From positions 1,712,397 to 1,776,396 of the forward strand of contig OZ245010.1 in NCBI GenBank assembly GCA_965223735.1: a stretch of DNA of 64,000 nucleotides, written 5' to 3'. How positions within the stretch are numbered: the first letter of the stretch is position 1; every line of letters begins with the position of its first letter. This DNA comes from Candidatus Oxydemutatoraceae bacterium. GTDB lineage: Bacteria > Pseudomonadota > Gammaproteobacteria > Poriferisulfidales > Oxydemutatoraceae. Under the pieces are notes generated by a model. It ran no database searches, was not told the DNA's origin, and saw nothing but the letters and a program-made list of their open reading frames with translations. Position numbers and translations under genes: made by a program. Of the stretch, positions 766 through 48,975 are shown piece by piece.

Positions 766-2103
766 ATGAGATCGCCCCGGACAAAGGCAGGCGCCATCAA
801 GGCCGGGGGCGAGTTCGCCCGCCGTCGGTGCGCGCTGATGCGTATGCTCGGCAAAGGTGCGCTCGCGGTGATTCCCGCCGCACCGACGGCGTCGCGCACA
901 CGCGACGTCGATCATCCTTATCGCCAGCACAGCGACTTCGCCTACCTGACCGGTTTTTGCGAACCCGATGCAATTGCGGTGTTCGCACCCGGATCACCCG
1001 AACGTCGTGGCGGCGAGTACATTCTGTTTTGTCGTCCCCGCGACGCGCAACGCGAGATCTGGGACGGTGCATTTGCCGGGTGTCGGGGGGCGGTGCGTGA
1101 TTTCGGTGCGGACCGCGCATTTCCGATCGGAGACTTTGACCGAGTCTTCCCAGAACTCGCAGCGAAATGCGCCCGCATCTACCTGCCGATGGACGGTGAG
1201 GAGACGCCGCACCGACACCTGCTGCGCCTGTTGCGACACCCGCTTCGCCAGAGCGGGGGCCGTCGTGAACTGCTCGCGCTTGAGGAGCCGGTTCACGAGA
1301 TGCGCCTGCGCAAGTCGCGCGGCGAGACCGCGTTGATGAGGCGGGCTGCGGTGATTTCGGCGACAGCGCACCGGCGCGCGATGCGCGCGTGCCGCCCAGG
1401 CGTATTTGAATATCAGCTCGCAGCCGAGATCCACTATGAGTTCGAGCGGGCCGATGCGGTGCCCGCGTATCCGTCCATCGTGGCTGGCGGCGTTAACGCG
1501 TGCACCCTGCATTACACGCGCAACGGTGACGCGCTCAGGGACGGTGATTTGCTGCTGATAGACGCCGGCGCCGAGTGTCAGCTTTACGCAAGCGACATTA
1601 CCCGCACGTTTCCGGTCGGCGGACGCTTCAGGCCGGTGCAGCGTGAACTGTACGAGGTCGTGCTCGAAGCGCAGTCCGCGGCGATCGGCGAAGTGCGTCC
1701 GGGCAACACCTGGGAGGACGTACATGGTGCGGCGGTGCGTACACTGACCCGGGGGCTGGTCGCGCTCGGGTTGCTCAGGGGGCAGGTGCGGCGCTTGATC
1801 GCTGCTCGCGAGTATCAGCGCTTTTACATGCACCGCACCGGCCACTGGCTCGGCATGGAAGTGCACGACGTGGGTTGTTACAGCGACGGTGTGCACCCGC
1901 GGCGGTTTGAGCCCGGCATGGTGCTGACCGTCGAACCGGGGCTTTATATTCGCACCGGCGCCGACGTGCCGCGCCGCTGGCGCAACACCGGTATTCGTAT
2001 TGAGGACGACCTCGTAGTGACCAAAGACGGCGCGCGCGTTCTGAGCGACGGCGTGCCGAAAGACCCTGACGAGATCGAGGCGCTGGTTTCGGCGGGTGGA
2101 TGA
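766..2103 (+). CDS. pepP: Xaa-Pro aminopeptidase (M24B family)
   Basis: Long ORF with PepP-like N-terminus (EFARRRCALM..HPYRQHSDFAYLTGFCEPDA) and the M24 metal-binding core (HRTGHWLGMEVHD, EPG..Y). ATG at 766 sits in an ATGA overlap with the upstream ORF. pepP-ubiH-ubiI synteny. Confidence 0.85.
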   Translation: MRSPRTKAGAIKAGGEFARRRCALMRMLGKGALAVIPAAPTASRTRDVDHPYRQHSDFAYLTGFCEPDAIAVFAPGSPERRGGEYILFCRPRDAQREIWDGAFAGCRGAVRDFGADRAFPIGDFDRVFPELAAKCARIYLPMDGEETPHRHLLRLLRHPLRQSGGRRELLALEEPVHEMRLRKSRGETALMRRAAVISATAHRRAMRACRPGVFEYQLAAEIHYEFERADAVPAYPSIVAGGVNACTLHYTRNGDALRDGDLLLIDAGAECQLYASDITRTFPVGGRFRPVQRELYEVVLEAQSAAIGEVRPGNTWEDVHGAAVRTLTRGLVALGLLRGQVRRLIAAREYQRFYMHRTGHWLGMEVHDVGCYSDGVHPRRFEPGMVLTVEPGLYIRTGADVPRRWRNTGIRIEDDLVVTKDGARVLSDGVPKDPDEIEALVSAGG

Positions 2104-3348
2104 GTGTCGGCAATGAAGGCCTTTGACATAACGATCATCGGCGGCGGTCTCGCGGGCGCCGGTCTGGCAGCGGCGTTGCGTGGCTACCCCGGGCGTGTCG
2201 CACTGGTCGAGACGCACGCGCGCGATGTACTGTTCGAGGTGACGTTTGACGAGCGCAGCATCGCGCTCGCCGACGTCAGTCGCCGCATCCTTGACACGCT
2301 GGGGCTGTGGGATGCGCCGGCGATGCAGGTGCATCCGATCCGCGAGATCCGCGTATCCGAAAAAGGCGTGTTCGGCGCCACCCGCATCTGCGCCGCGCAC
2401 GAGAGGCTGGACGCACTCGCGTGGACGGTGCCCCACCGCGTGCTCGGTCAGGCGTTGCACCGGGATCTGCACGGCCTTGAACTGTTCTCACCGGCGACGG
2501 CGACGGCGCTGGCGCAGCACGCGGACCGCGTGACGGTCACGCTTGAGCAGGCGGGGGTATGCCGCGAGATCGAAACCCGCCTGCTGGTGCTTGCTGACAG
2601 CGGCGGACTGCGGGCTGCGGCCGGGTTTGACACCGTGGTATCCGACTACGGGCAGGCCGCCGTTGTGGTCAACATTGAAACCGAGATCGCCTGCGGCGAC
2701 GTGGCTTATGAGCGTTTCACGCCGCAGGGCCCGCTCGCGGTGCTGCCGCTCGGCGGTTCGCGTTGCGGTGTCGTGTGGACGCGGGCGCGGAATGAAGCCG
2801 CCGCCGTCGCCGCGGAACCCGACGAGCGGTTCATCGAGCGGCTGCAAGCTGACTTCGGTCGCCGTCTGGGACGTATTCTGCGCGTTGGCGGGCGCTCGGT
2901 GTTTCCGTTGCGCCTCGTGCGGACGACGCAAATGGTCAGGGGGCGCGTCGTTGTGCTCGGCAACGCCGCCCACACGCTGCACCCGGTTGCGGGGCAGAAC
3001 TTCAATCTCACGTTGCGTGATATTGCGGCGCTTGCCGAAAGTGTGTTCGCTGCGGACGACGCGGGCGCACGTGCCGGTCTCGCCGCGTGGCAGGATCAGC
3101 GCCGCGCCGATGTCCGGCGTGTTGCACGCTTCACCGATTTTCTGGCGCGCGCATTCACCCGGTGTCGGCGCGTGTTCGCGCCGGTGCGCGGTGCGGCGTT
3201 GCTCGGCTTTGAGTTGTTTCCGCCTCTGCGCCGCGCCGTCGTGCGTAGAAGCCTCGGCCTGTTGCCGTCGGCGTCGCGCCTCGCGAGCGGCCTGCCGCTG
3301 ACGCCCCGGAAGCCGCGGGCGGCGCGGGGAGAAGCGCGTGCCGGCTGA
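2104..3348 (+). CDS. ubiH: 2-octaprenyl-6-methoxyphenol hydroxylase (FAD-dependent monooxygenase)
   Basis: N-terminal FAD fold IIGGGLAGAGLA, a UbiH/Coq6-family ORF immediately downstream of pepP. Conserved order pepP-ubiH-ubiI. Confidence 0.8.
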   Translation: MSAMKAFDITIIGGGLAGAGLAAALRGYPGRVALVETHARDVLFEVTFDERSIALADVSRRILDTLGLWDAPAMQVHPIREIRVSEKGVFGATRICAAHERLDALAWTVPHRVLGQALHRDLHGLELFSPATATALAQHADRVTVTLEQAGVCREIETRLLVLADSGGLRAAAGFDTVVSDYGQAAVVVNIETEIACGDVAYERFTPQGPLAVLPLGGSRCGVVWTRARNEAAAVAAEPDERFIERLQADFGRRLGRILRVGGRSVFPLRLVRTTQMVRGRVVVLGNAAHTLHPVAGQNFNLTLRDIAALAESVFAADDAGARAGLAAWQDQRRADVRRVARFTDFLARAFTRCRRVFAPVRGAALLGFELFPPLRRAVVRRSLGLLPSASRLASGLPLTPRKPRAARGEARAG

Positions 3349-4513
3349 CCGCGTCGTTGTTGTCGGCAGCGGCGTCACCGGTCTTGCCTGCGCCGCCGGT
3401 TTCGCGCAGATCGGCTGTCCGGTCGTGTTGTGCGGCGACGAGCCGCTGCCGTTTGACGTCGCTCAGGATCACGACCTGCGCGTGTTTGCGCTGAATGACG
3501 CATCCTGTGAATTGCTGCGGCGTCTCGACGTGTGGGACGCCGTCGCTGCCCAGCGGCTCTGTCCTTACGAGAAGATGGAGGTGTGGGCCGGGCGCGGGCG
3601 CGTGACGTTTCACGCAACCGACGTCGCCCGGGCGCAACTCGGCGTGATCGTTGAAAACCGGCTCCTGTGCAGTGTGCTGTTTGAGCATCTGCGCGGATGC
3701 CGCAAGGTTGAGGTTCGCTGTCCGGCGCGGCTGCAATCCATGCGATCCGTCGCCGACGGGGACGCCTGGTGCGTTGCGTTCGACGACGGCGGCGAAATTG
3801 AAGCGGGTCTTGTCGTCGGTGCCGACGGCGCCGATTCGCAGGTGCGGGCATACGCCGGCATCGTTTACAGGCGTCATGGATATGGTCAGGAGGCGATCGT
3901 CGCGACGGTCGAGTGTGAAGTCGCGCACGACAACATTTGTCTGCAATGTTTCTCGCGCGACGGCATCGCGGCTTTGTTGCCGCTCACCGGGTGCGGCGGG
4001 AAGTTGGGCTCCGTTGTGTGGTCGTGCAACAGGCCGCTCGCCGACGAACTCGCCGCGTTGCCCGACGAGGCGTTCGGTAAACGGCTGATGCAGGTGCTGG
4101 AGAATCGTCTCGGGGCGATGGCGCCGGTTTCGAGGCGCGTCGCCTTCCCTTTGTACGGCGCGCTGGCCGACGACTACATCGGCGCCGGTATCGCGCTGGT
4201 CGGCGACGCCGCGCACAGCGTCCACCCATTGGCGGGGCAGGGTGCGAACATGGGGCTGGCCGACGTGCGCGTGCTGACCGACGCCGTGGCGTCTGCGGCG
4301 TGTGGTGCGGGTCTTCGCCGGTCGGTGCTGCGCCGCTATCAGCGCAACGTCAAGGGACGCAACCTCGGTATGAAGTACGCTCTCGACGCGATCCGCTGGT
4401 GGTTTGTCGGCGAGCATTTGCCGCCGGGCGTGCTGCAATCTGCGGCGCTGGATCTTACCGACCGCTGTCTGCCGCTGAAGATCTGGTTCATGGAGAAGGC
4501 AGCCGGCAACTGA
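3338..4513 (+). CDS. ubiI: UbiH/UbiF/VisC-family FAD-dependent hydroxylase (ubiquinone biosynthesis)
   Basis: GSGVTGLACA Rossmann motif, family resemblance to UbiH, and position after ubiH. Overlaps the ubiH 3' end by 11 nt. Confidence 0.7.
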   Translation: MPADRVVVVGSGVTGLACAAGFAQIGCPVVLCGDEPLPFDVAQDHDLRVFALNDASCELLRRLDVWDAVAAQRLCPYEKMEVWAGRGRVTFHATDVARAQLGVIVENRLLCSVLFEHLRGCRKVEVRCPARLQSMRSVADGDAWCVAFDDGGEIEAGLVVGADGADSQVRAYAGIVYRRHGYGQEAIVATVECEVAHDNICLQCFSRDGIAALLPLTGCGGKLGSVVWSCNRPLADELAALPDEAFGKRLMQVLENRLGAMAPVSRRVAFPLYGALADDYIGAGIALVGDAAHSVHPLAGQGANMGLADVRVLTDAVASAACGAGLRRSVLRRYQRNVKGRNLGMKYALDAIRWWFVGEHLPPGVLQSAALDLTDRCLPLKIWFMEKAAGN

Positions 4514-4650
4514 TGCGGGATTGCCTTGCGTCCGTGCACGTTGAAGGTGCGGAGCGGGCCTGGTGTCGGCTCAGGCGGCCACGTCGGCAGCCGCCGGATA
4601 ATGGCCGGCGATGTTGTCGCCCCGGATTGAATTCGCTGAACAAGTTGTGA

Positions 4651-5154
4651 TTACGAGGCCAGCACGGTTATTGCGGCGTCATAATCGGGTTCGTTTGCGA
4701 TCTCGCTGACCAGTTCGGCGTGCCGGATGACGTTGTCTTCGTCAATCACGATGACCGCCCGTGCGGTGATGCCTGCCAGCGGGCCGTTTTCGATCAGCAC
4801 GCCGTAGTCCTTGGCGAACGCTCTTGAACGCATCAGCGACAGCGGGATCACGTTGTTGAGGTTTTCACTTGAACAAAAGCGCGACATCGCGAACGGGAGG
4901 TCGGATGAAATGATCAGGAACACCGCGTCGGGGTTGCGTTGCGCCGCCTCGTCAAACTTCTTTGTAGAGGTTGCGCACACCGGCGTATCAAGACTCGGCA
5001 CGATGTTCAGCAACTTTCGCTTGCCCTGGAAGTCCTTGAGACTGACGTCTTCAAGATCCTTGTTGACCAGCGTAAAGTCGGGCGCCTCCGCCTCCGGCGC
5101 CGGAAAGACACCGTGCGTGTGTATTTTGTTGCCTTGTAAAGTGATCTCCGTCAT
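4651..5154 (-). CDS. tpx: Thiol peroxidase (atypical 2-Cys peroxiredoxin)
   Basis: Alignable along its length to E. coli Tpx (FTLV.KDL..V.L..F.GKRK.LNI.PS.DT.VCA.S..KF, LPFA.SRFC..E.L.NV). Start chosen at MTEITLQ. Confidence 0.85.
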   Translation of the reverse strand: MTEITLQGNKIHTHGVFPAPEAEAPDFTLVNKDLEDVSLKDFQGKRKLLNIVPSLDTPVCATSTKKFDEAAQRNPDAVFLIISSDLPFAMSRFCSSENLNNVIPLSLMRSRAFAKDYGVLIENGPLAGITARAVIVIDEDNVIRHAELVSEIANEPDYDAAITVLAS

Positions 5155-5432
5155 GGCTTGATTCCTGTTGGGTTGGTTTTGCAACGCGACGCCCGTTTTC
5201 AGGCGACGGGCAGGCTGCTGTTTTTCAGAGGCCTATATTCTACTTGCAGAGCCGCTTGCGGGGCTAAGTATATAATTGCCCTTGTTTAATTAGAAACCGG
5301 AGCCGGTCCAGCCCGAAAACCCCGGAGCAGGGCGGTTACAGCGGCGGGGCTTTGCGGGCGCCCGCCGTAATCCGCTGATTTTATGTGCATAACAAGGGTA
5401 CCTGAACGGCCGCCCGCCGGGCGGCGGAGCGT

Positions 5433-6140: not shown

Positions 6141-6853
6141 TGGTTTCACTGCACCTGACAGTTGCTGATCTCGACTATGCCGTGCGTGGTCACACGCTGT
6201 TGCGCGACATCAATTTCACCAGCGATGCCGATGCCTGCACCGCGTTGCTCGGCGCCAACGGTGCGGGCAAGACCACGCTGTTGCGGCTTTGCCATGGTCT
6301 GATCGAGCCGAGCGGCGGCGACATCCGCTGGGGTGACGCGTCGCCGCGCGACCTCGGCGGACGCATCGCGATGGTGTTCCAGAGACCCCGTCTGCTCAGA
6401 CGCAGCGCCTACGCCAACGTCGATTACGTCCTGCGTCTGCATGGGTTTTCGGACGAGGAAAGACGGCGGTGCATCACCGAGGCGTTCAGGCTGGTCGGCC
6501 TCGAGCACCGTGCGACACATCAAGCGCATTTGCTGTCCGGCGGCGAGCAACAGCGGCTTGCGGTCGCGCGCGCCTGCGCACTCAGCCCGGACGTTATCCT
6601 GATGGATGAGCCGACCGGCCGGCTTGATATGGAATCCACTGAGCGGGTTGAGGATGCGATTAGAAGCCTCAAGCGTGCCGGCACCAAGATCATCTTCACG
6701 TCGCATAATCTTTCTCAGGTCAGGCAATTGTGCGACGATGTTATTTTTCTCGATCGCGGGTGTCTGATTGCGCACGCCGCGTGCGAGGAGTTTTTCAGCA
6801 GCACCGGGAACAAGACGATATGCGATTTTCTCCGCCTGCAAGCCGCTTTCTGA
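6140..6853 (+). CDS. ABC transporter ATP-binding protein (TupC-like)
   Basis: Walker A GANGAGKTT, ABC signature LSGGEQQRLAVARA, Walker B ILMDEP. Start overlaps the permease stop. Confidence 0.7.
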   Translation: MVSLHLTVADLDYAVRGHTLLRDINFTSDADACTALLGANGAGKTTLLRLCHGLIEPSGGDIRWGDASPRDLGGRIAMVFQRPRLLRRSAYANVDYVLRLHGFSDEERRRCITEAFRLVGLEHRATHQAHLLSGGEQQRLAVARACALSPDVILMDEPTGRLDMESTERVEDAIRSLKRAGTKIIFTSHNLSQVRQLCDDVIFLDRGCLIAHAACEEFFSSTGNKTICDFLRLQAAF

Positions 6854-7695
6854 AGTCCACCCCGGGGCTATTGCCGGGGTTATTGCTGGGGTTATTGCCG
6901 GGGACATTTCTGGGGATGTCCCCCGGTGCATTATCCGGCGGACAGGCCGTCGCATCGGCGCATCCCGTCAGGCTGGCTTCGACGACCTCGACCGATAATT
7001 CAGGGCTTTACGAAGTGTTGCTGTCCGCGTTCAAGCGCGACACCGGTATTGAGGTACACGTGATCGCCGTCGGTACCGGTCGTGCGTTGAGCATTGCGCG
7101 CCGCGGCGACGCCGACGTCCTGATCGTTCATGACGAACCATCAGAATTGGAATTTGTGCGCGAAGGCTACGGCGTTTCGCGCAAGACCTTTATGTTCAAT
7201 GACTATGTGCTGGTCGGGCCGGTCGCGGGTGCCGCCGACATTGTGGGTGCGGTCGGCGTCGTCGAGGTGCTTCGGCGTATCGCAAAAAGCGGTGCAATCT
7301 TTGTTTCGCGCGGCGACGACAGCGGCACACACAAAAAGGAGTTGTCATTGTGGCGTATGGCGTTGAATGTGGTGCCGTCGGAGCGTGGCTGGTACCGCGA
7401 AGTCGGCAGGGGCATGGGTGCGGCATTGAACATCGCCAATGAGCTCAATGCGTACACCTTGTCCGACCGCTCAACTTGGATCAGTTTCAATAACCGCCCG
7501 AACTTGAAAGTGATCGCCGAGAATGATCCGCCGCTGCGCAATCCCTACAGTGTCATTCTGGTCAATCCCGGGCGTCACCCCGGCGTACGTTTTCACGGGG
7601 CGCGGACGTTTGCCGACTGGCTGACTTCCGAAAAGGGGCTTTCGTTGATCCGCGCTTTCAGGGTGCGCGGTGAACAGTTGTTCTTTCCTCTTTGA
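6820..7695 (+). CDS. Periplasmic oxyanion (tungstate TupA-like) substrate-binding protein
   Basis: Signal peptide followed by TTSTDNSGL..VIAVGTGRAL..ARRGDADVLIVHD..FMFNDYVLVGP, which resembles TupA-family binding proteins. Overlaps the ATPase 3' end in another frame. Start chosen at MRFSPPAS. Confidence 0.6.
   Translation: MRFSPPASRFLKSTPGLLPGLLLGLLPGTFLGMSPGALSGGQAVASAHPVRLASTTSTDNSGLYEVLLSAFKRDTGIEVHVIAVGTGRALSIARRGDADVLIVHDEPSELEFVREGYGVSRKTFMFNDYVLVGPVAGAADIVGAVGVVEVLRRIAKSGAIFVSRGDDSGTHKKELSLWRMALNVVPSERGWYREVGRGMGAALNIANELNAYTLSDRSTWISFNNRPNLKVIAENDPPLRNPYSVILVNPGRHPGVRFHGARTFADWLTSEKGLSLIRAFRVRGEQLFFPL
6864..6905 (+). repeat. Three tandem ~14-15 bp units (GGG[G/C]TTATTGC[C/T]GG) inside the tupA-like signal-peptide coding region
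   Basis: Direct reading: ggggctattgccgg ggttattgctgg ggttattgccgg, encoding GLLPGLLLGLLPG. Confidence 0.6.
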
Positions 7696-7710: not shown

Positions 7711-8265
7711 TCAGCGCGGTGCCGGTTGCATCAGCGTCAATTCGCGCCCCGACTGGCTGAAGTCGAGGCGCTTGAGGAACTCCATGCCGAGCAGGATGCT
7801 GTCGCCCTCCATGTGCGGGTTGATACTGCCGTTGAGGTCGTCGAGACGGATGCCGCCGACTTCAACGCTGTCGAGGCGGGTGCGGTAAACGGTGACCGTG
7901 CCGTTTGCGGTGCGGGCATAAAACGGCGCGCCGTGCACGAGGTTCAGCTTGTTCGCCACTGCCGCGGGGATGTTCACGTCGCTTGCGCCGGTGTCCACCA
8001 GAAAGTTGACCGGGCGGCCGTTGATGTTGCCGCTCGTGACGTAATGGCCGTAACGGTTGCGTACCAGCACAACGCGCATACCGCCGTCCACAAGCCGCTC
8101 GGACACCGGCGCCGTGTTCGGGTTGTAGAGTTTGACCAGATAATCTTCAAAGAACAGAAACAACAGCACCAACACCGAGATCCAGGTCGCCGTGAGCATG
8201 AACCGTCCGTAGCGGCGGCTGACCGGCGCTTCCGGGTGCGGGGGTTCGTCATGGCCGTGGTTCAT
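7711..8265 (-). CDS. Retropepsin-like aspartic protease (TIGR02281 family), membrane-anchored
   Basis: N-terminal TM segment, DTGAS catalytic motif (FLVDTGASDVNIP) and a clan AA fold. Confidence 0.6.
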   Translation of the reverse strand: MNHGHDEPPHPEAPVSRRYGRFMLTATWISVLVLLFLFFEDYLVKLYNPNTAPVSERLVDGGMRVVLVRNRYGHYVTSGNINGRPVNFLVDTGASDVNIPAAVANKLNLVHGAPFYARTANGTVTVYRTRLDSVEVGGIRLDDLNGSINPHMEGDSILLGMEFLKRLDFSQSGRELTLMQPAPR

Positions 8266-8328
8266 TTCGGGAATTATATAACTTCGGACATTCGGGACCG
8301 TTCGCGTCTGCACTTTGAAGATGAACGT

Positions 8329-9066
8329 TCAGTCGGTTTCTGCGACCATCAATTCGCGCGCTTTTTCTGCAAGTTGTTTGCGGTCGCCGTCGCCGGGCAG
8401 GCTGTCGGTGTAGCGCACGACGGCGTGTATGCACGGCTCGCCGAGCACCGCGAGGGCATGGGTGAAGAACGGCACGTCGCTGGTGTAGGGCGCTTTCTCG
8501 TGAACGCCGTCGTGTGCGCTGTTGCACGGGTAAGTGATGACCATCGGCTGCACCCACGCATGGGTGTCGATCGCGGCCATGAACAGGCGGGGGTGAAAGC
8601 GCTGTATTTCGGTGCCGTCCGAAGTCGTGCCTTCGGGAAAGAACGCGACGCTGGCGCCGACGCGCAGGCGTTCGCTGATCAACTGCGCCGCGGTTTCCGC
8701 GCCGGCGCCGCGGTCTATGAACAAGGTGCCGGCTTTGCGCGCGAGATAACCGATGATCGGCCAGCGCGCGACCTCGGCTTTCGACAGAAAACTCACCGGT
8801 TGCAGGCTGCCGACGATCACGATGTCCATCCACGAGATATGGTTGGCGACGACCAGCGACGCGCCTTCGGCGGGTTTGCCGTGAATATGCAGGCGGATGC
8901 CGACCAGTCGCGTGCAGGTGCGCAGCCACCAGCACACGATGCCGCGTTGCCGGGCGTTGCCCGCTTTATGTCCGTCGGGCGTCAGCGCGAAGATGCACAG
9001 CAGTATGCCGATGACGACGTGGATGCCGATCAGCGGGAGACGGATTGCAATGCGCAGGACGCTCAT
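8329..9066 (-). CDS. 1-acyl-sn-glycerol-3-phosphate acyltransferase family (PlsC/LPLAT)
   Basis: NHISWMDI (HX4D acyltransferase motif) and FPEGTTS motif. N-terminal TM segment. Confidence 0.75.
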   Translation of the reverse strand: MSVLRIAIRLPLIGIHVVIGILLCIFALTPDGHKAGNARQRGIVCWWLRTCTRLVGIRLHIHGKPAEGASLVVANHISWMDIVIVGSLQPVSFLSKAEVARWPIIGYLARKAGTLFIDRGAGAETAAQLISERLRVGASVAFFPEGTTSDGTEIQRFHPRLFMAAIDTHAWVQPMVITYPCNSAHDGVHEKAPYTSDVPFFTHALAVLGEPCIHAVVRYTDSLPGDGDRKQLAEKARELMVAETD

Positions 9067-9541
9067 GCGGGATCGGCCGTGTCGGGTCGCAACCCGTCCG
9101 GCGCCGGGTGAATGTCAACCAGTCGCGTGCAGGTGCGCAGCCACCAGCGCACGATGCCGCGCTGCCGCGTGCTGCCCGTTCTATGTCTGTCGGGTGTCAG
9201 CGCGAAGATGCACAGCAGTATGCCGACGACGACGTGGATGCCGATCAGCGGGAGACGGACGGCGATGCGCAGGGCGCTCATGCGGGATCGGTCGGGGTGG
9301 ATCGGAACCCGTCCGGCGCTGGGTGGAGATCGATCAGCCGCGTGCAGGTGCGCAGCCACCAGTGCACGATGCCGCGCTGCCGCGTGCTGCCCGTTCTATG
9401 TCTGTCGGGCGTCAGCGCGAAGATGCACAGCAGTATGCCGATGACGACGTGGATGCCGATCAGCGGGAGACGGATTGCAATGCGCAGGACGCTCATGCGG
9501 GATCGGCCGTGTCGGGTCGCAACCCGTCCGGCGCCGGGTGG
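8896..9541. repeat. Three tandem ~215-bp copies of the acyltransferase 5' end (about 45 codons) plus its upstream region
   Basis: Copies end at about 9110, 9326 and 9541 with a few substitutions. This produces the pseudo-ORFs 9063..9359(-) and 9278..9496(-), which repeat [18 protein letters not shown]. Confidence 0.8.
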
Positions 9542-24035: not shown

Positions 24036-24151
24036 CGCCCACACCCCACGCTGAACCGCCGTTTCCATTCCGGGTCGCGGCGGCGAGGCGGTTCAAATCA
24101 CGGGTGCAGGCCGTCCGGTTGCGTCCCCGGCTCGCGTTCATGCTTCAGGTC
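24036..24151 (-). pseudogene. Degenerate duplicate of the apaH 3' end (about 40 codons, with W->stop and an internal ~110-bp deletion)
   Basis: Minus-strand translation DLKHEREPGTQPDGLHP*FEPPRRRDP..RRFSVGCG matches ApaH DLGHKREPGTQPDGLHPWFEPPHRRDP...RRFSVRCGE encoded at 28140-28380. Nucleotide identity is clear over two blocks. Confidence 0.55.
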
Positions 24152-26329: not shown

Positions 26330-28135
26330 ATGAACAATCTTTTAACAGACGATACGAAATCGATAATGCTGCTCTGTGGCGTGCTTGGAAAAGCGCGCTC
26401 CATAAAACCACTCACGCAATCAGAATACAACAGGGTAGCCCGCTGGCTGATCGGTGAGAAAATGCGGCCGGCGGATCTGCTCCGATATGAAAATGTAGAT
26501 TTGGCGGCAATAAATTCCGGGATCGAGCTGCAACGATTGAAATCCCTGCTCGGAAGAGGCGTTCAGCTTGGGTTTGCTGTAGAGGAATGGCAACAGAACG
26601 GCATTTGGGTTTTGAGCCGAAGCGACCGGGATTATCCGGCACGGTATAAAAAGCATCTGAAGAATGAAGCACCTCCGCTTCTTTTCGGAGTAGGCGACAG
26701 GTCTCTTTTGCAGGGTGGTGGAGTTGCAATTGTCGGTTCGCGGAATGTGGACGGTGACGGAGAGGATTTTGCCCGTAAAGTGGCTGAGCTATGCGCTTAC
26801 AACAGAATGCCGGTTGTTTCAGGGGGGGCTCGCGGGGTTGACCAGATTGCCATGACCGCCGCACTTGATGCGGGAGGTGTGGTAATAGGCGTTCTTGCTG
26901 AAAATCTTCTGAGGAGAAGTCTTGAACGCAATGCACGCAGGGCAATCTCTGATGACCAGTTGCTTTTAATATCTCCTTACCGCCCGGATGCCCGCTTTAC
27001 AGTCGGGACGGCAATGGGGCGAAATAAGTTGATCTATGCCATGGCTGATTACGGCCTGGTCGTGAGTGCTGAGTATAAAAAAGGCGGCACCTGGGCCGGG
27101 GCGGTGGAAGAGCTGAAACGGGAAAATCCTCTACCGGTTTTTGTGAGATCGGGCGCAAATGTTCCTGTCGGCAACACAGAGTTGCTGTGTTCAGGTGCTC
27201 TGGAGTATCAGGAAGTGAAATATCGGGAAGAGCTGGGTCAACACCTCGCTGATCTTGCCAAGATTGTAAAAGGTCAAGAACAAGCACAGATCGACAGATC
27301 AGGGAAAGATGAAAAACAGGGAGTTCTTCCTATTGGTCCAACGATGGACAGTTCCGCGGTGGCGCCGGGACCCGGCATTTACGAGACTGTATTACCGGTG
27401 ATCATTGATCATCTGGGATCCCCAACCGCCTCCGGTGAATTATCGAAAACCCTGGACGTGTCGAAAGCACAGCTGTATCGCTGGCTCAGAAAGGCTGTGG
27501 ATGAAGGACGGATCCAAAAACTACTAAGTCCTGTGAGATATCAGGTAATAGAGGCGGAACCGGAAACCATTTACGAAGCCGTATTGCCGGTGATCATTGC
27601 TCATCTGGGATCATCAACTGCGGTCGATGAATTATCGAAAGCTCTGGACGTGTCGAAAGCACAACTGAATCACTGGCTCAAAAAAGCCGTGGATGAAGAA
27701 AGGATCCGAAAGCTATCGCAGCCCGTAAGGTATCAGGCAATGGAAGCGGCGCAGACAACCATTTGCGAAGCCGTCTCGCCGGTGATCATCAGTCATCAAA
27801 CTATTTACGAAGCTGTATTGCCGATGATCATTGCTCATCTGGGATCCCCAACTGCACCCGGTGAATTATCGAAAACGCTGGACGTGTCGAAGGTACAGTT
27901 GAACAGCTGGCTCAAAAAGGCCGTGGATGAAGGACGGATCCAAAAGTTATCGCAGCCCGTAAGGTATCAGGCAATGGCAGCGGAGCCGACAACCATTTAC
28001 GAAGCCGTATTGCCGGTGATCATTGCTCATCTGGGATCATCAACTGCGGTCGATGAATTATCGAAAACTCTGGACGTGTTGAAGGTACAGTTGAACAGTT
28101 GGCTCAAAAAAGCCGTGAATGAAGGAAGGATCTGA
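26330..28135 (+). CDS. DprA/Smf (SLOG-fold) domain protein with four C-terminal ~63-aa tandem winged-helix-like repeats
   Basis: DprA Rossmann core VAIVGSRNVDG..VVSGGARGVDQIAMTAALDAGGVVIGVLAENL. The C-terminus carries 4 repeats of IYEAVLPVIIAHLGS.TA..ELSKTLDVSK.QLN.WLKKAVDEGRIQKLSQPVRYQA. Starts 4 nt after the helicase-PRTase stop. Confidence 0.75.
   Translation: MNNLLTDDTKSIMLLCGVLGKARSIKPLTQSEYNRVARWLIGEKMRPADLLRYENVDLAAINSGIELQRLKSLLGRGVQLGFAVEEWQQNGIWVLSRSDRDYPARYKKHLKNEAPPLLFGVGDRSLLQGGGVAIVGSRNVDGDGEDFARKVAELCAYNRMPVVSGGARGVDQIAMTAALDAGGVVIGVLAENLLRRSLERNARRAISDDQLLLISPYRPDARFTVGTAMGRNKLIYAMADYGLVVSAEYKKGGTWAGAVEELKRENPLPVFVRSGANVPVGNTELLCSGALEYQEVKYREELGQHLADLAKIVKGQEQAQIDRSGKDEKQGVLPIGPTMDSSAVAPGPGIYETVLPVIIDHLGSPTASGELSKTLDVSKAQLYRWLRKAVDEGRIQKLLSPVRYQVIEAEPETIYEAVLPVIIAHLGSSTAVDELSKALDVSKAQLNHWLKKAVDEERIRKLSQPVRYQAMEAAQTTICEAVSPVIISHQTIYEAVLPMIIAHLGSPTAPGELSKTLDVSKVQLNSWLKKAVDEGRIQKLSQPVRYQAMAAEPTTIYEAVLPVIIAHLGSSTAVDELSKTLDVLKVQLNSWLKKAVNEGRI
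27371..28135 (+). repeat. In-frame tandem DNA repeat, about 4.2 copies of about 189 bp, encoding the C-terminal repeats of the DprA-like gene
   Basis: Units begin ATTTACGAAGCCGTATTGCCGGTGATCATTGCTCATCTGGGATC at 27571, 27803 and 27991, with a diverged first unit at 27371 and a partial 42-bp unit at 27761. Confidence 0.85.
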
Positions 28136-28139
28136 TCCT

Positions 28140-28955
28140 TTACTCCCCACACCTCACGCTGAACCGCCGTTCCTGTCCCGGGTCGAGGCGGAACGCGGTC
28201 AGGCTGCCGCCCCACACGCAACCGGTGTCGAGGCCGAGAACCCCATCGCGGCGGATGAAACCGAGCGCCGACCAGTGGCCGAAGATCACCGTGTAGGCCG
28301 GGTCGCGGCGGTGGGGCGGTTCAAACCACGGGTGCAGGCCGTCCGGTTGCGTCCCCGGTTCGCGTTTATGTCCCAGGTCGATGCGTCCGTCGGCGCTGCA
28401 GAAGCGTAGCCGGGTCATCACATTGATGATCACGCGCGCACGGTCGTCGCCGTTTAAATTGTCGTCCCAGTATTCGGGTGTGTTGCCGTAGATGTTCTTG
28501 AGGAACGTCCGGTAGTCGTCCGCACGCAGTCGCGTTTCAACTTCTCCGGCAAGTGCCTGCGCGGTGTTGATGTCCCATCCGGGTATCAGGCCCGCGTGCA
28601 CCATCGCGAGGCGGCGTTCATGGTCCACGATGAACAGCGGGTGTCGTCTCAGCCACTCGATCAGTTCGCGGCGGTCGGGGCTTTGCAGCACCGCGTCGAG
28701 TGTGCCGTCGGCCGGCGGGTGTTCGCAGCCGGCGTCGGTTCTCAGCAGATGGAAGTCGTGATTGCCGAGCACGCACCGCACGCACGCGCCGAGGCTTTTC
28801 AGGAAGCGCAGGCTTTCGAGCGAATCGCTGCCGCGGCTGACGAGATCACCGGTCAGCCAGAGTTCGTCGTGCGCCGGGTCAAACTCGATCTCGTCGAGCA
28901 GTTGTTTCAGCGGGTTGAGGCAGCCTTGCAGATCGCCGATCGCGTAGAGTGACAT
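28140..28955 (-). CDS. apaH: Bis(5'-nucleosyl)-tetraphosphatase, symmetrical
   Basis: MSLYAIGDLQGC..LTGDLVSRG..GNHD metallophosphatase motifs. apaG-apaH synteny. Confidence 0.85.
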   Translation of the reverse strand: MSLYAIGDLQGCLNPLKQLLDEIEFDPAHDELWLTGDLVSRGSDSLESLRFLKSLGACVRCVLGNHDFHLLRTDAGCEHPPADGTLDAVLQSPDRRELIEWLRRHPLFIVDHERRLAMVHAGLIPGWDINTAQALAGEVETRLRADDYRTFLKNIYGNTPEYWDDNLNGDDRARVIINVMTRLRFCSADGRIDLGHKREPGTQPDGLHPWFEPPHRRDPAYTVIFGHWSALGFIRRDGVLGLDTGCVWGGSLTAFRLDPGQERRFSVRCGE

Positions 28956-28989: not shown

Positions 28990-29367
28990 TCAGTGAAGCA
29001 CGCGCGGTGCGGCGAGCATGAATTCCTGTATTTCGGCGTCAAATTCCTTGCCGTCTTCGGCGAGCATCTGGTAACTGCCGCGCATGGTGCCGATCGGCGT
29101 GTCGATCAGGGTGCCGCTGGTATAGCGGAAGGCTTCACCCGGGCGCAGGAACGGCTTTTCCCCGACCACGCCTTCGCCGCGCACTTCCTGCACCTTCTCG
29201 TTGGAATCGGTGATCACCCAGTGCCGTGACAGCAGTTGTGCCGCGACGCAGCCGTGGTTGGTGATCGTGATCGTATAGGCGAATACGTAACGTTCGTTGT
29301 CTGCATCGGACTGATCTTCCAGGTAGTGCGTTTGCACGTCCACGTCGATGTCATAGCGGTTTTTCAT
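28990..29367 (-). CDS. apaG: ApaG (DUF525) protein
   Basis: 125 aa, alignable to E. coli ApaG (DNERYVFAYT.TI.N....QLL.R.W.IT). Start chosen at MKNRYD. Confidence 0.85.
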   Translation of the reverse strand: MKNRYDIDVDVQTHYLEDQSDADNERYVFAYTITITNHGCVAAQLLSRHWVITDSNEKVQEVRGEGVVGEKPFLRPGEAFRYTSGTLIDTPIGTMRGSYQMLAEDGKEFDAEIQEFMLAAPRVLH

Positions 29368-30187
29368 AGTGGTTGCCTCGCTTTCCTGATGCTGTTTGCT
29401 TGCCGTCAATCAAGTTTAACATGCCGAGGAAATCATCTACCCCCAGCGTTTCGGGGCGGGCGGCGGCGGACAGATTGAGCCGTGCGAAATCGGTGTCGTC
29501 GAGGGTGCCCGAGAAGATCCGCCCGATGGTTTTGCGCCGTTGCGAGAACGCACGTCCGACAAGGTTGAGGAACGCCCGCCGGCGTTGCGGGTCGAACGGG
29601 CACGGGCGCGGCAGCAGCCTGACCAGTGAGGAACTGACTTGTGGTGGCGGCGAGAACGCGCTGGGGGCGACGTCAAACAGATGGCGGACTTCCACGAAAC
29701 ACGCCGCGGTCACGCTCAGCCGCGAGTAATTGCGCGTGCCGGGTTGCGCGGCGAGGCGTTCAGCAACTTCGGTCTGTAACATCAGGTGCATGTCGCGGAT
29801 GTGTTCGCAGGTGTTGAACAAATGCATCAGCAACGGCGTCGAAACGTTATAGGGCAGGTTGCCGATGACTCTGATCTTGCGGTCCGTGTGCAGCGCTGCG
29901 AAGTCAAAGTCGAGCGCGTCGCGGCAGTGCAGCGTGAAGGCTTTGTTTTCGGCAAAGCGTTGCGTCAGCCGGTCGGCGAGCGCGTGGTCGATTTCAACGG
30001 TGTCGAGGTGGGCGCAGCGTTCAAGCACCGGCGCGGTCAACGCGCCGAGGCCGGGGCCGATTTCGACGATCGCCTCGTCCGGGGCCGGCGAGATCGCCTC
30101 AACCACGCGCGCGACGGTCTGTGTGTCGGTGAGGAAATGCTGGCCGAAGTGTTTTTTAGCCGGGGTGTTCATCGCCTTGAGGCTCAT
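29351..30187 (-). CDS. rsmA: 16S rRNA (adenine1518-N6/adenine1519-N6)-dimethyltransferase
   Basis: FGQHFL...[17 protein letters not shown], KsgA family. pdxA-ksgA-apaG-apaH order. Start is uncertain (30187 or 30172). Confidence 0.85.
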   Translation of the reverse strand: MSLKAMNTPAKKHFGQHFLTDTQTVARVVEAISPAPDEAIVEIGPGLGALTAPVLERCAHLDTVEIDHALADRLTQRFAENKAFTLHCRDALDFDFAALHTDRKIRVIGNLPYNVSTPLLMHLFNTCEHIRDMHLMLQTEVAERLAAQPGTRNYSRLSVTAACFVEVRHLFDVAPSAFSPPPQVSSSLVRLLPRPCPFDPQRRRAFLNLVGRAFSQRRKTIGRIFSGTLDDTDFARLNLSAAARPETLGVDDFLGMLNLIDGKQTASGKRGNHYEKPL

Positions 30188-30770
30188 CGTTCGGGGGCCT
30201 GTTTTATCCGGCTTGCTCACTGGCGGTTCTCAGTGCTCATCGTTCGGGGATTCGTTGTTTCAACGGTGTCGAGGCGGCACCGCGTTCGAGCACCGGCGCG
30301 GTCAACGCGCCGAGGCCGGGGCCGATTTCGACGATCGCCTCGTCCGGGGCCGGCGAGATCGCCTCAACCACGCGCGCGACGGTCTGTGTGTCGGTGAGGA
30401 AATGCTGGCCGAGGTGCTTTTTAGCCGGGGTGTTCATCGCCTTGAGGCTCATCGTCCGGGGGCCTGTTTTATCCGGCTTGTTCACTGGCGGTTCTCAGTG
30501 CTCATCGTTCGGGGATTCGTTGTTTCAATGGTGTCGAGGCGGCACCGCGTTCGAGCACCGGTGCGGTCAATGCGCCGAGGCCGGGGCCGATTTCGACGAT
30601 CGCCTCGTTCGGGGCCGACGAGATCGCCTCAACCACGCGCGCGACGGTCTGTGTGTCGGTGAGGAAATGCTGGCCGAGGTGCTTTTTAGCCGGGGTGTTC
30701 ATCGCCTTGAGGCTCATCGTTCGCGTGTTTGTTTTGCCTGCCTGCTCACCGGCGCCCCTCAATGTTGATC
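29995..30770. repeat. Three tandem ~265-bp copies of the ksgA 5' end (about 60 codons) plus its upstream leader
   Basis: Copies start at about 29995, 30260 and 30525. The pseudo-ORFs 30237..30485(-) and 30502..30762(-) repeat [23 protein letters not shown]...[17 protein letters not shown]. Confidence 0.8.
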
Positions 30771-31865: not shown

Positions 31866-32345
31866 TGCAGCAACGGTGTTCCAGCAACCAGGCGGGTGTT
31901 CAAAAGACAGGCGAGGTCATGCGGTTTCCGGGATGACCACGCGGCGCGGGAATGACCCGCAGCGGAACTTGCGGAGGGACCAGTGAGCAGCGGTGTTCCA
32001 GCAGCCAGGCGGGTGTTCAAAAGACAGGCGGGGTCATGCGCTTTCCGGGATGGCCACGCGGCGCGGGAATGACCCGCAGCGGAACTTGCGGAGGGGTCAG
32101 TGAGCAACGGTGTTCCAGCAACCAGGCGGGTGTTCAAAAGACAGGCGGGATCGTGCGCTTTCCGGGATGGCCACGCAGCGCGGGAATGACCCGCAGCGGA
32201 ACTTGCGGAGGGGCCAGTGAGCAGCGGTGTTCCAGCAGCCAGGCGGGTGTTCAAAAGACAGGCGGGATCGTGCGCTTTCCGGGATGGCCACGCGGCGCGG
32301 GAATGACCCGCAGCGGAACTTGCGGAGGGGTCAGTGGGTGGCGGC
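31866..32345. repeat. Intergenic tandem repeat, 4 x ~120 bp, between pdxA and surA
   Basis: The unit gcaacggtgttccagcaaccaggcgggtgttcaaaagacaggcgXggtcatgcgXtttccgggatgXccacgcggcgcgggaatgacccgcagcggaacttgcggagggXXcagtgagca occurs four times. Each unit contains a hairpin CCGCA-GCGGAACT-TGCGG. Confidence 0.8.
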
Positions 32346-46089: not shown

Positions 46090-46166
46090 GCGCCCGTAGC
46101 TCAGTTGGATAGAGTACCTGGCTACGAACCAGGTGGTCGGAGGTTCGAATCCTTCCGGGCGCGCCA
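46090..46166 (+). tRNA. tRNA-Arg (anticodon ACG)
   Basis: Cloverleaf read by eye: acceptor GCGCCCG/CGGGCGC, anticodon stem-loop cctgg-CTACGAA-ccagg, T-arm GGAGGTTCGAATCCTTC, 3' CCA. Near-identical to E. coli argV. Confidence 0.9.
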
Positions 46167-48331: not shown

Positions 48332-48865
48332 ATGAACGTGAGTCTTGACCCGTTCCGTCCCATCGGTGAACTGCTTGAAAGCGGCGGGCCGGTGCTCGGG
48401 ATACTTCTCGTGATGACGTTCGTCATGTGGCTTCTGATCATTGAACGCTACTGGTACTTGTCGTTCCAGCAGCGGTTTTTCGCTGACGAGTTCGCCTCGC
48501 GCTGGCGGGCGCGCAGCGACCGGCGTTCACGCGCCGCCCGCATGATCCGTTCGTGCTGGCTTTCGCAGTTTCGCTGCCATCTTGAACAACGCATTGCCCT
48601 GATCAGGATGCTGGTCGGTATCAGCCTGCTGCTCGGCCTGCTCGGTACGGTAACCGGCATGGTCGGCGTATTTGAAGGACTGTCGGTATTCGGTGTCGGG
48701 GGTTCCGGCGGTATCCGGGCGGTCGCCGACGGCATTGCCGGCGCGGTCTTCCCCGCGATGGCCGGGATGGTTGCTGCGCTGTCGGGTGTGTATTTCTCTG
48801 CGCAGCTCAAAAAGCGCGTCGCGCACGCGGTGCGGGTATTGCGCGTGTGTCTGGCGCTGGAGTGA
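48332..48865 (+). CDS. exbB: ExbB/TolQ family protein
   Basis: 177 aa, three TM helices, LLGLLGTVTGMVGVF motif. Confidence 0.75.
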   Translation: MNVSLDPFRPIGELLESGGPVLGILLVMTFVMWLLIIERYWYLSFQQRFFADEFASRWRARSDRRSRAARMIRSCWLSQFRCHLEQRIALIRMLVGISLLLGLLGTVTGMVGVFEGLSVFGVGGSGGIRAVADGIAGAVFPAMAGMVAALSGVYFSAQLKKRVAHAVRVLRVCLALE

Positions 48866-48975
48866 GGGGCGATGATCAGAAGACATGGCGACCATGCTGA
48901 AAGCGCGTCGCGCACGCGGTGCGGGTATTGCGCGTGCGCCTGGCGCTGGGGTAAGGGGCGATGATCAGAAGACGC
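48811..48975. repeat. Tandem duplication, 2 x ~85 bp, spanning the exbB 3' end and exbD start
   Basis: aaagcgcgtcgcgcacgcggtgcgggtattgcgcgtg[t/c]g[t/c]ctggcgctgg[a/g]gt[g/a]aggggcgatgatcagaagac occurs twice (48811-48894 and 48893-48975). Confidence 0.7.

Follow-up and report, generated by a model that had tools for sequence, protein, structure and literature searches.

The DUF255 and acyltransferase genes at this locus are separated by a tandem triplication of their own junction, in which three 215-bp units lie head to tail and in register and are 89-95% identical between copies. We consider it likely that this is a genuine, derived gene-junction triplication, probably begun by illegitimate joining, then expanded and partly homogenised, and tolerated because both genes remain intact. 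Tandem duplications of 90-500 bp are in excess in this lineage specifically, and the array is one of them; the excess may stem from a higher rate of formation or from weaker deletion. The window here means the whole 64-kb stretch of DNA that was analysed, and its features and those of related loci are listed in Table 1.

Three programs agree on the array. Tandem Repeats Finder (TRF) places it at 8903..9540 with a period of 215, 3.0 copies, 90% matches, no indels and a score of 1080; a repeat search finds three 219-nt copies with spacings of 215 and 215 and identities of 89% and 93%; and self-BLAST aligns 8897-9326 with 9112-9541 at 90.0% and 8901-9110 with 9331-9540 at 94.8%. The earlier note's description of a unit of about 215 bp in three copies with minor variants is thus borne out, and its CWWLRT, RWWLRT and HWWLRT variants are real, marking the proximal, middle and distal copies respectively. 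No array with a period of at least 60 was found by the same scan in 831 kb of 80 control loci from other bacteria, and the 215-bp repeat is therefore beyond chance expectation. The copy number of 3.0 is that of a single assembly of one genome; exact-protein look-ups of the acyltransferase returned no second assembly of the source genome, the protein cluster having one member, and the novel acyltransferase/DUF255 junction is absent from the JGI metagenome collection.

Read along the minus strand, each unit consists of the last 45 nt of the DUF255 gene (15 codons), the ATGA shared by the DUF255 stop codon (TGA) and the acyltransferase start codon (ATG), at 9493-9496, 9278-9281 and 9063-9066, and the first ~166-171 nt of the acyltransferase gene. 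The copied coding part of the acyltransferase gene is accordingly about 55-57 codons and not the ~45 reported before. The DUF255 gene had also been called convergent; the open reading frame list and the Pfam matches place it on the same (minus) strand as the acyltransferase gene, co-directional with it and directly upstream. It was correctly seen that the region upstream of the acyltransferase gene is triplicated together with its 5' end, but that region is not a leader, as the ~45 nt before each ATG are DUF255 coding sequence. Because the upstream part is the coding 3' end of a co-directional gene, what is repeated is a gene junction rather than a promoter or leader cassette. The proximal copy alone joins the rest of the gene, as had been stated, running on into the 245-aa acyltransferase open reading frame, and 430 extra bp now separate the two genes. 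The DUF255 tail of unit 1 is identical to the genuine tail in unit 3, and that of unit 2 differs from both at 7 positions.

Table 1. Positions of the junction array, its flanking genes and comparable arrays; entries marked with a locus handle are numbered along that related locus and all others along the window.
Feature	Position	Strand	Description
Tandem array, three 215-bp units	8897..9541	-	TRF, self-BLAST, minus-strand dissection
Distal unit (unit 3)	9327..9541	-	Genuine DUF255 3' end (9497-9541) and orphan acyltransferase head (9327-9496), HWWLRT
Middle unit (unit 2), most diverged	9112..9326	-	Orphan DUF255 tail (9282-9326) and orphan acyltransferase head, RWWLRT
Proximal unit (unit 1)	8897..9111	-	Orphan DUF255 tail (9067-9111) and genuine acyltransferase 5' end, CWWLRT
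Distal chimeric ORF, 72 aa	9278..9496	-	Acyltransferase residues 1-~56 fused in frame to DUF255-type tail
Middle chimeric ORF, 72 aa	9063..9281	-	Same design; TGA overlaps ATG of the real acyltransferase gene
Acyltransferase gene, complete, 245 aa	8329..9066	-	PF01553, 78.9 bits (cutoff 23); NHISWMD and FPEGTTSDG motifs
DUF255 / Thioredox_DsbH gene, complete	9493..11649	-	PF03190, 243 bits (cutoff 27)
Sister array, 265-bp unit x 2.7, 95-96%	29992..30754	-	Leader and first ~70 codons of rsmA/ksgA
Sister array, 117-bp unit x 4.0, 95%	31869..32336	-	Fills surA-pdxA spacer
Sister array, 89-bp duplication	48811..48973	+	exbB stop, spacer, exbD start
L001 array, 168 bp x 4, 97%	1292-1965		DUF255 end, spacer, first 43 codons of YdjM-family gene; three 50-aa ORFs
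L001 array, 137 bp	6806-7034		Permease/ABC-ATPase junction
L002 array, 493 bp	4352-5353		Across acyltransferase/Asp-protease junction
L084 array, 344 bp	10715-11410		Acyltransferase/Asp-protease junction; separate event from the L002 array
L084 array, 174 bp	11741-12100		Across 3' end of binding-protein gene
L084 array, 143 bp, copies 100% identical	18897-19185		Inside M24 (Xaa-Pro aminopeptidase-like) gene

Both flanking genes are complete. The acyltransferase has the HX4D motif of its domain, and its NHISWMD and FPEGTTSDG motifs are conserved among its orthologs; these orthologs align over their full length at 56-74% identity and lie on other Mb-scale contigs, and the identical protein has one record only, on a 1.85-Mb contig. 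Its description as a PlsC-family protein holds at the level of the PF01553 domain but not at that of the curated PlsC cutoffs, the scores being 33.7 bits for PRK15018 (cutoff 501) and 86.9 for TIGR00530 (cutoff 102.95). Of the NCBIfam models, the lyso-ornithine-lipid OlsA ones match best, with 141 bits where the cutoff is 300, and since the protein falls below every NCBIfam equivalog cutoff the safe name is 'lysophospholipid acyltransferase family protein'. The DUF255 reading frame is open to a TTG at 11733 with a likely ATG start at 11649, its orthologs in the relatives are 696-714 aa long, and its stop (TGA, 9493-9495) overlaps the ATG of the distal orphan open reading frame. No recognisable Shine-Dalgarno sequence lies upstream of the native DUF255/acyltransferase ATGA overlap. 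For annotation, the acyltransferase gene starts at the proximal ATG at 9066 and the DUF255 gene ends at 9493, and the two 72-aa open reading frames are gene fragments and not genes.

Comparison with orthologous loci, which the earlier note proposed as a check, shows the DUF255/acyltransferase junction in single copy in seven relatives (L002, L083, L084, L085, L087, L088 and L089) and the array in none of them, so that the triplication is the derived state. The junction overlap is GTGA in L083, and the gene calls of L088 give the same 4-nt overlap; the other single-copy relatives have gaps of 21-90 nt between the two genes. In L001, YdjM-family and epimerase genes (1831-3782) are inserted between the DUF255 and acyltransferase genes, which are adjacent in the window and in the seven other relatives. 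The L002 contig (ERZ25069810 ctg137305_11x_c) has the gene order of the window (lgt, thyA, folA, DUF255, acyltransferase, Asp protease and ABC transporter), but its G+C content is 43.8%, where the window and the other relatives have 58-66%. Among named genomes, the nearest are metagenome-assembled genomes (MAGs) of 'Candidatus Oxydemutatoraceae' and 'Ca. Porisulfidus'. One paper only was found with the latter name in its abstract, on a sponge and its associated metagenome, and none was found that mentions 'Oxydemutatoraceae'.

The copies retain a record of how the array arose. The novel junction connects acyltransferase nucleotide ~171 (codon ~57) with DUF255 at 45 nt ahead of its stop codon, that is, ...CGCGACTGGTCGGCATCC of the acyltransferase to ACCCGGCGCC... 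of DUF255. The microhomology at the breakpoint is imperfect only (GGYCGRC..CC), and the junction has mutated since. It is present twice, as two diverged versions, and was therefore copied and then mutated. At 30 sites one of the three copies departs from the other two, and these sites form 8 runs, a number as low as this being reached in 0 of 100,000 shuffles. Units 1 and 3 are identical over a 138-nt tract comprising the tail and the first 93 nt of the head, where unit 2 differs at 13 sites, whereas over head nucleotides 94-133 it is units 2 and 3 that are identical and unit 1 that differs, at 8 sites. This mosaic of variants implies sequence exchange between copies, by gene conversion or unequal crossover; two duplications followed by simple divergence do not yield the observed pattern of runs. 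The first 215-bp duplication may have formed by slipped-strand or template-switch illegitimate joining at the weak microhomology, and recombination between the copies would then have generated the third unit and swapped patches of sequence between units. In E. coli, duplication followed by recombinational expansion is an established two-step model, as outlined in PMC2656507 and PMC1428787, and the triplication fits this scheme in having a copy number above two and exchange between its copies.

Duplication of the junction has created two chimeric 72-aa open reading frames in series, in each of which start and stop both lie within an ATGA overlap so that the -4 geometry is kept. Both are predicted to encode a strongly hydrophobic transmembrane helix at residues ~6-28 (Kyte-Doolittle 19-residue mean up to 2.7), and neither has a match in Pfam or NCBIfam. 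Between copies the acyltransferase heads have dN/dS values of 0.36-0.99 on only 10-15 differences; the ratio is 0.36 for units 2 and 3 and 0.99 for units 1 and 3, with counts too small to exclude weak purifying selection. The DUF255 tails have dN greater than dS, and the substitution pattern of the 72-aa open reading frames leans towards neutral. Ribosomes reading through the array would terminate and restart two extra times before the acyltransferase gene, which would probably lower acyltransferase translation somewhat and yield two small membrane peptides as by-products. The triplication is probably near-neutral.

The array had been treated as an isolated oddity, but the window alone has at least four such arrays, and with its relatives the total is ten. 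A scan for periods of at least 60 finds six arrays in the 64-kb window, one of them a CRISPR array and one an in-frame protein repeat, and one in L001; self-BLAST adds five, of which three are in L084 and one each in L001 and L002. There are thus ten short duplications in ~100 kb of four related genomes, against none in the 831 kb from other bacteria. Their distribution is patchy, with none in L083, L085-L089 or L003-L005, several of which have the same contig-naming style. Within the window, the array at the start of the rsmA/ksgA gene (29351..30220) yields orphan open reading frames of 82 and 86 aa; the spacer between surA and pdxA, filled by the second sister array, is 17-54 nt long in relatives; and the exbB/exbD duplication yields a 30-aa open reading frame whose stop overlaps the exbD ATG.

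Apart from orthology, units of different arrays have no sequence in common, and the only matches to the focal unit are its own three copies and the orthologous acyltransferase 5' ends of relatives. With the units unrelated and the focal unit nowhere else, the arrays are independent local events and not copies of a mobile element. The DUF255 3' end has been hit in two genomes and the acyltransferase/Asp-protease junction likewise in two. A hot-spot at particular junctions was considered and rejected, as a rough count, based on six arrays over about eight shared junctions, gives ~1.6 coincident pairs expected by chance against the 2 observed.

The arrays are strongly biased towards gene boundaries. 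Using the gene calls of five relatives' loci, in which coding density is 0.90, a random segment of unit length has a chance of 0.18-0.56 of including a gene boundary; nine of the ten arrays do so where 2.97 would be expected (P = 8.5e-5). This boundary bias is what selection acting on real duplications would leave, since a duplication that contains a boundary costs little, both complete genes being remade, and one inside a gene breaks it. In a duplication of the former kind the first unit would restore an intact upstream gene and the last unit an intact downstream gene, and the arrangement would so persist, while duplications inside genes would be purged by selection; the placement statistics support this proposed reason for persistence. 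The sole exception is the 143-bp duplication in L084, which shifts the frame of the M24 peptidase gene, replaces its last 17 residues and leaves a 61-aa orphan open reading frame; removing one copy restores an ortholog-like C-terminus. As the only array with identical copies it is the youngest, and its origin lies in a very recent mutation, in a minority variant or in an assembly error. Six arrays hold both stop and start codons, and in four of these the orphan open reading frame exactly remakes the native gap or overlap (-4, +15, -1 and -4). One third would be expected to do so in frame, and the excess is not significant (P = 0.10). Such in-frame remaking may reflect selection for translational coupling of the downstream gene, in which case the arrays may fall short of strict neutrality.

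The window and its relatives contain several other repeats. The thyA (thymidylate synthase) and folA (dihydrofolate reductase) genes are present as a whole-gene tandem duplication (12908-14303 and 15002-16404, period 2094 bp, 95%), and in L002, L083, L084, L085 and L089 they are in single copy between lgt and neighbouring genes. Directly after the second folA copy is a CRISPR-like array (16447-17010) of a ~36-nt repeat (GTTGTGAATTGCGGATAGGCCTTGGTCAGTTATACT) with 66-bp spacing; a similar array lies in L084 (1-637), at a syntenic position, beside Cas1 and an HNH/RuvC Cas9-like gene. The spacer from lgt (11864..12667) to the first thyA copy, 12660-12902, contains, besides short repeats rich in GTGAAGGTG (24 bp x 2.8), two copies of an 81-nt segment at a distance of 116 bp (91%); lgt and thyA abut in L083. 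A plus-strand open reading frame of 601 aa (26330..28135) with a DprA/DNA_processg_A domain has in-frame repeats of 192 and 234 bp at 27376-28132, corresponding to 64 and 78 aa at 81-89% identity and forming a C-terminal series of helix-turn-helix-like modules. Direct repeats of 73 nt (93%) at 24070-24142 and 28298-28370 bracket a 4.2-kb segment containing this DprA-like open reading frame and one of 693 aa. The right repeat lies inside the open reading frame 28140..28955, whose syntenic genes in L083 and L085 are metallophosphatases (PF00149), and the segment looks like an inserted islet with a duplicated target. In L089, a 543-aa protein without a Pfam match (16365..17996, minus strand) contains in-frame repeats at 16398-17629 with periods of 123, 165, 246 and 288 bp and identities of 77-98%.

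Other accounts of the triplication fare less well. We think it unlikely that the array is functional, whether its units adjust the expression of the acyltransferase against that of DUF255, by supplying further translation-initiation regions or by a relay of termination and reinitiation, or its 72-aa open reading frames act as small membrane proteins. Both orphan frames are intact, begin with ATG, encode the hydrophobic helix and keep the ATGA overlap, as would be expected of functional sequences, but one breakpoint that happens to be in frame, as one in three would be, directly accounts for their integrity, and the in-frame fusions that remake the native junction in four of six comparable arrays carry only the pooled P = 0.10. 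The low dN/dS between units 2 and 3 favours function, and is offset by the ratio near one for units 1 and 3 and by the excess of nonsynonymous change in the tails. The copies have persisted long enough for ~10% divergence, yet the array is conserved in no relative examined, and sister arrays of unrelated sequence at unrelated genes point to a mutational process and not to a designed element. The earlier suggestion that the upstream copies act as additional promoters is unsupported, there being no non-coding spacer and no sigma-70-like promoter site in 8200-12200. That the unit is itself a repeat element, whether REP- or MITE-like, an RNA gene or a contingency (phase-variation) repeat, is highly improbable, even though the window is repeat-rich and includes the CRISPR array. 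A mobile or interspersed element (REP, MITE or IS remnant) is rejected by the restriction of the focal unit to its own locus and the orthologous 5' ends, by the lack of common sequence among arrays, and by the absence of inverted repeats within the array in the repeat search. A structured RNA is rejected, as Rfam has no family in the array (the whole window yields one tRNA only, at 46090-46163) and the unit RNA folds no better than shuffles (z = +0.94). A phase-variable contingency repeat is rejected because any whole number of units leaves both complete genes intact, so that unit number has no effect on the flanking frames and there is no frame-shifting switch, and because no promoter-like site is present.

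We also regard it as very unlikely, though less so than a repeat element, that the triplication is an assembly artefact, in which a long-read metagenome assembler either duplicated the sequence falsely in tandem or concatenated variants from different strains. Contig names among the relatives, such as ctg137346_77x_c, suggest that the source is a chromosome assembled from a metagenome, a single assembly of it is on record, and one array in L084 has 100% identical copies and interrupts a gene, all of which would fit an artefact. An artefact would have to account, however, for a novel junction that occurs in two diverged versions, for copies that differ by up to 11% in a mosaic pattern, and for the avoidance of gene interiors by the arrays, a bias for which an assembler has no means; moreover L085 and L089, with the same contig-naming style, have no arrays in 20 kb each. 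The array is only 645 bp long. Long reads, which are assumed to underlie the source assembly, far exceed this length.

Stop/start overlaps of the ATGA type are characteristic of translationally coupled overlapping genes in bacterial operons. The native junction here is likewise ATGA and is copied exactly in each unit, which may mean that the genes are coupled; it differs from ordinary coupled overlaps in that three lie in series with two orphan open reading frames between them, and no description of such a serial stop/start overlap relay was found in the literature. As in contingency loci, there is a tandem repeat by a gene start whose copy number is able to vary by slippage or recombination, but the units are of 215 bp and not 1-10 bp, and frame and start are unchanged, so there is no on/off switch. 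The duplication-amplification of E. coli and Salmonella, so far as it is set out in PMC2656507 and PMC1428787, resembles the present case in its head-to-tail copies and single novel junction. The units considered here are 90-500 bp rather than kilobases, and since none of them amplifies a complete gene they bring no dosage benefit; divergence of up to 11% marks the copies as old and stable, which transient amplifications maintained by selection are not. The tandem duplication/random loss of animal mitochondrial genomes, in the form described for example in PMC4520695, similarly has junction-spanning copies, partial genes and new spacers tolerated in a compact genome. The mitochondrial cases belong to organelle genomes, involve tRNA and control-region junctions for the most part, and lead to a change in gene order. 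The present array lies in a bacterial chromosome whose gene order it leaves as it was, and its partial copies are still open reading frames. We found no precedent in the literature for junction-spanning duplications in bacteria, a result that does not establish their absence.

Taken alone, the array is an ordinary tandem duplication, of note chiefly for annotation. It shows concretely how genes that overlapped can come apart and how small chimeric open reading frames can arise. The interesting part is the density of such duplications in the lineage. The array-bearing relatives, which are uncultured, belong to the gammaproteobacteria; their chromosomes measure about 1.7-2 Mb, and their nearest named kin are sponge-metagenome 'Ca. 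Oxydemutatoraceae' MAGs. A tentative explanation, to which we give somewhat less than an even chance, is that the window's genome and these relatives have a heritable peculiarity of replication, repair or recombination that makes, or fails to delete, duplications of 90-500 bp, at a density of ~1 per 5-15 kb as extrapolated to the lineage from 64 kb and about 125 kb of relatives, and that selection leaves the boundary-spanning ones. If so, these genomes would constitute a natural mutation-accumulation experiment for short duplications, and the process would be a steady source of new intergenic spacers and of coupled chimeric mini-ORFs, that is, new small membrane proteins. Should the excess prove genome-wide, it would offer an unusually clean view of the structural mutations that a compact bacterial genome tolerates, and would suggest that the lineage has a repair or recombination trait of its own, traceable by comparing array-rich with array-free relatives.
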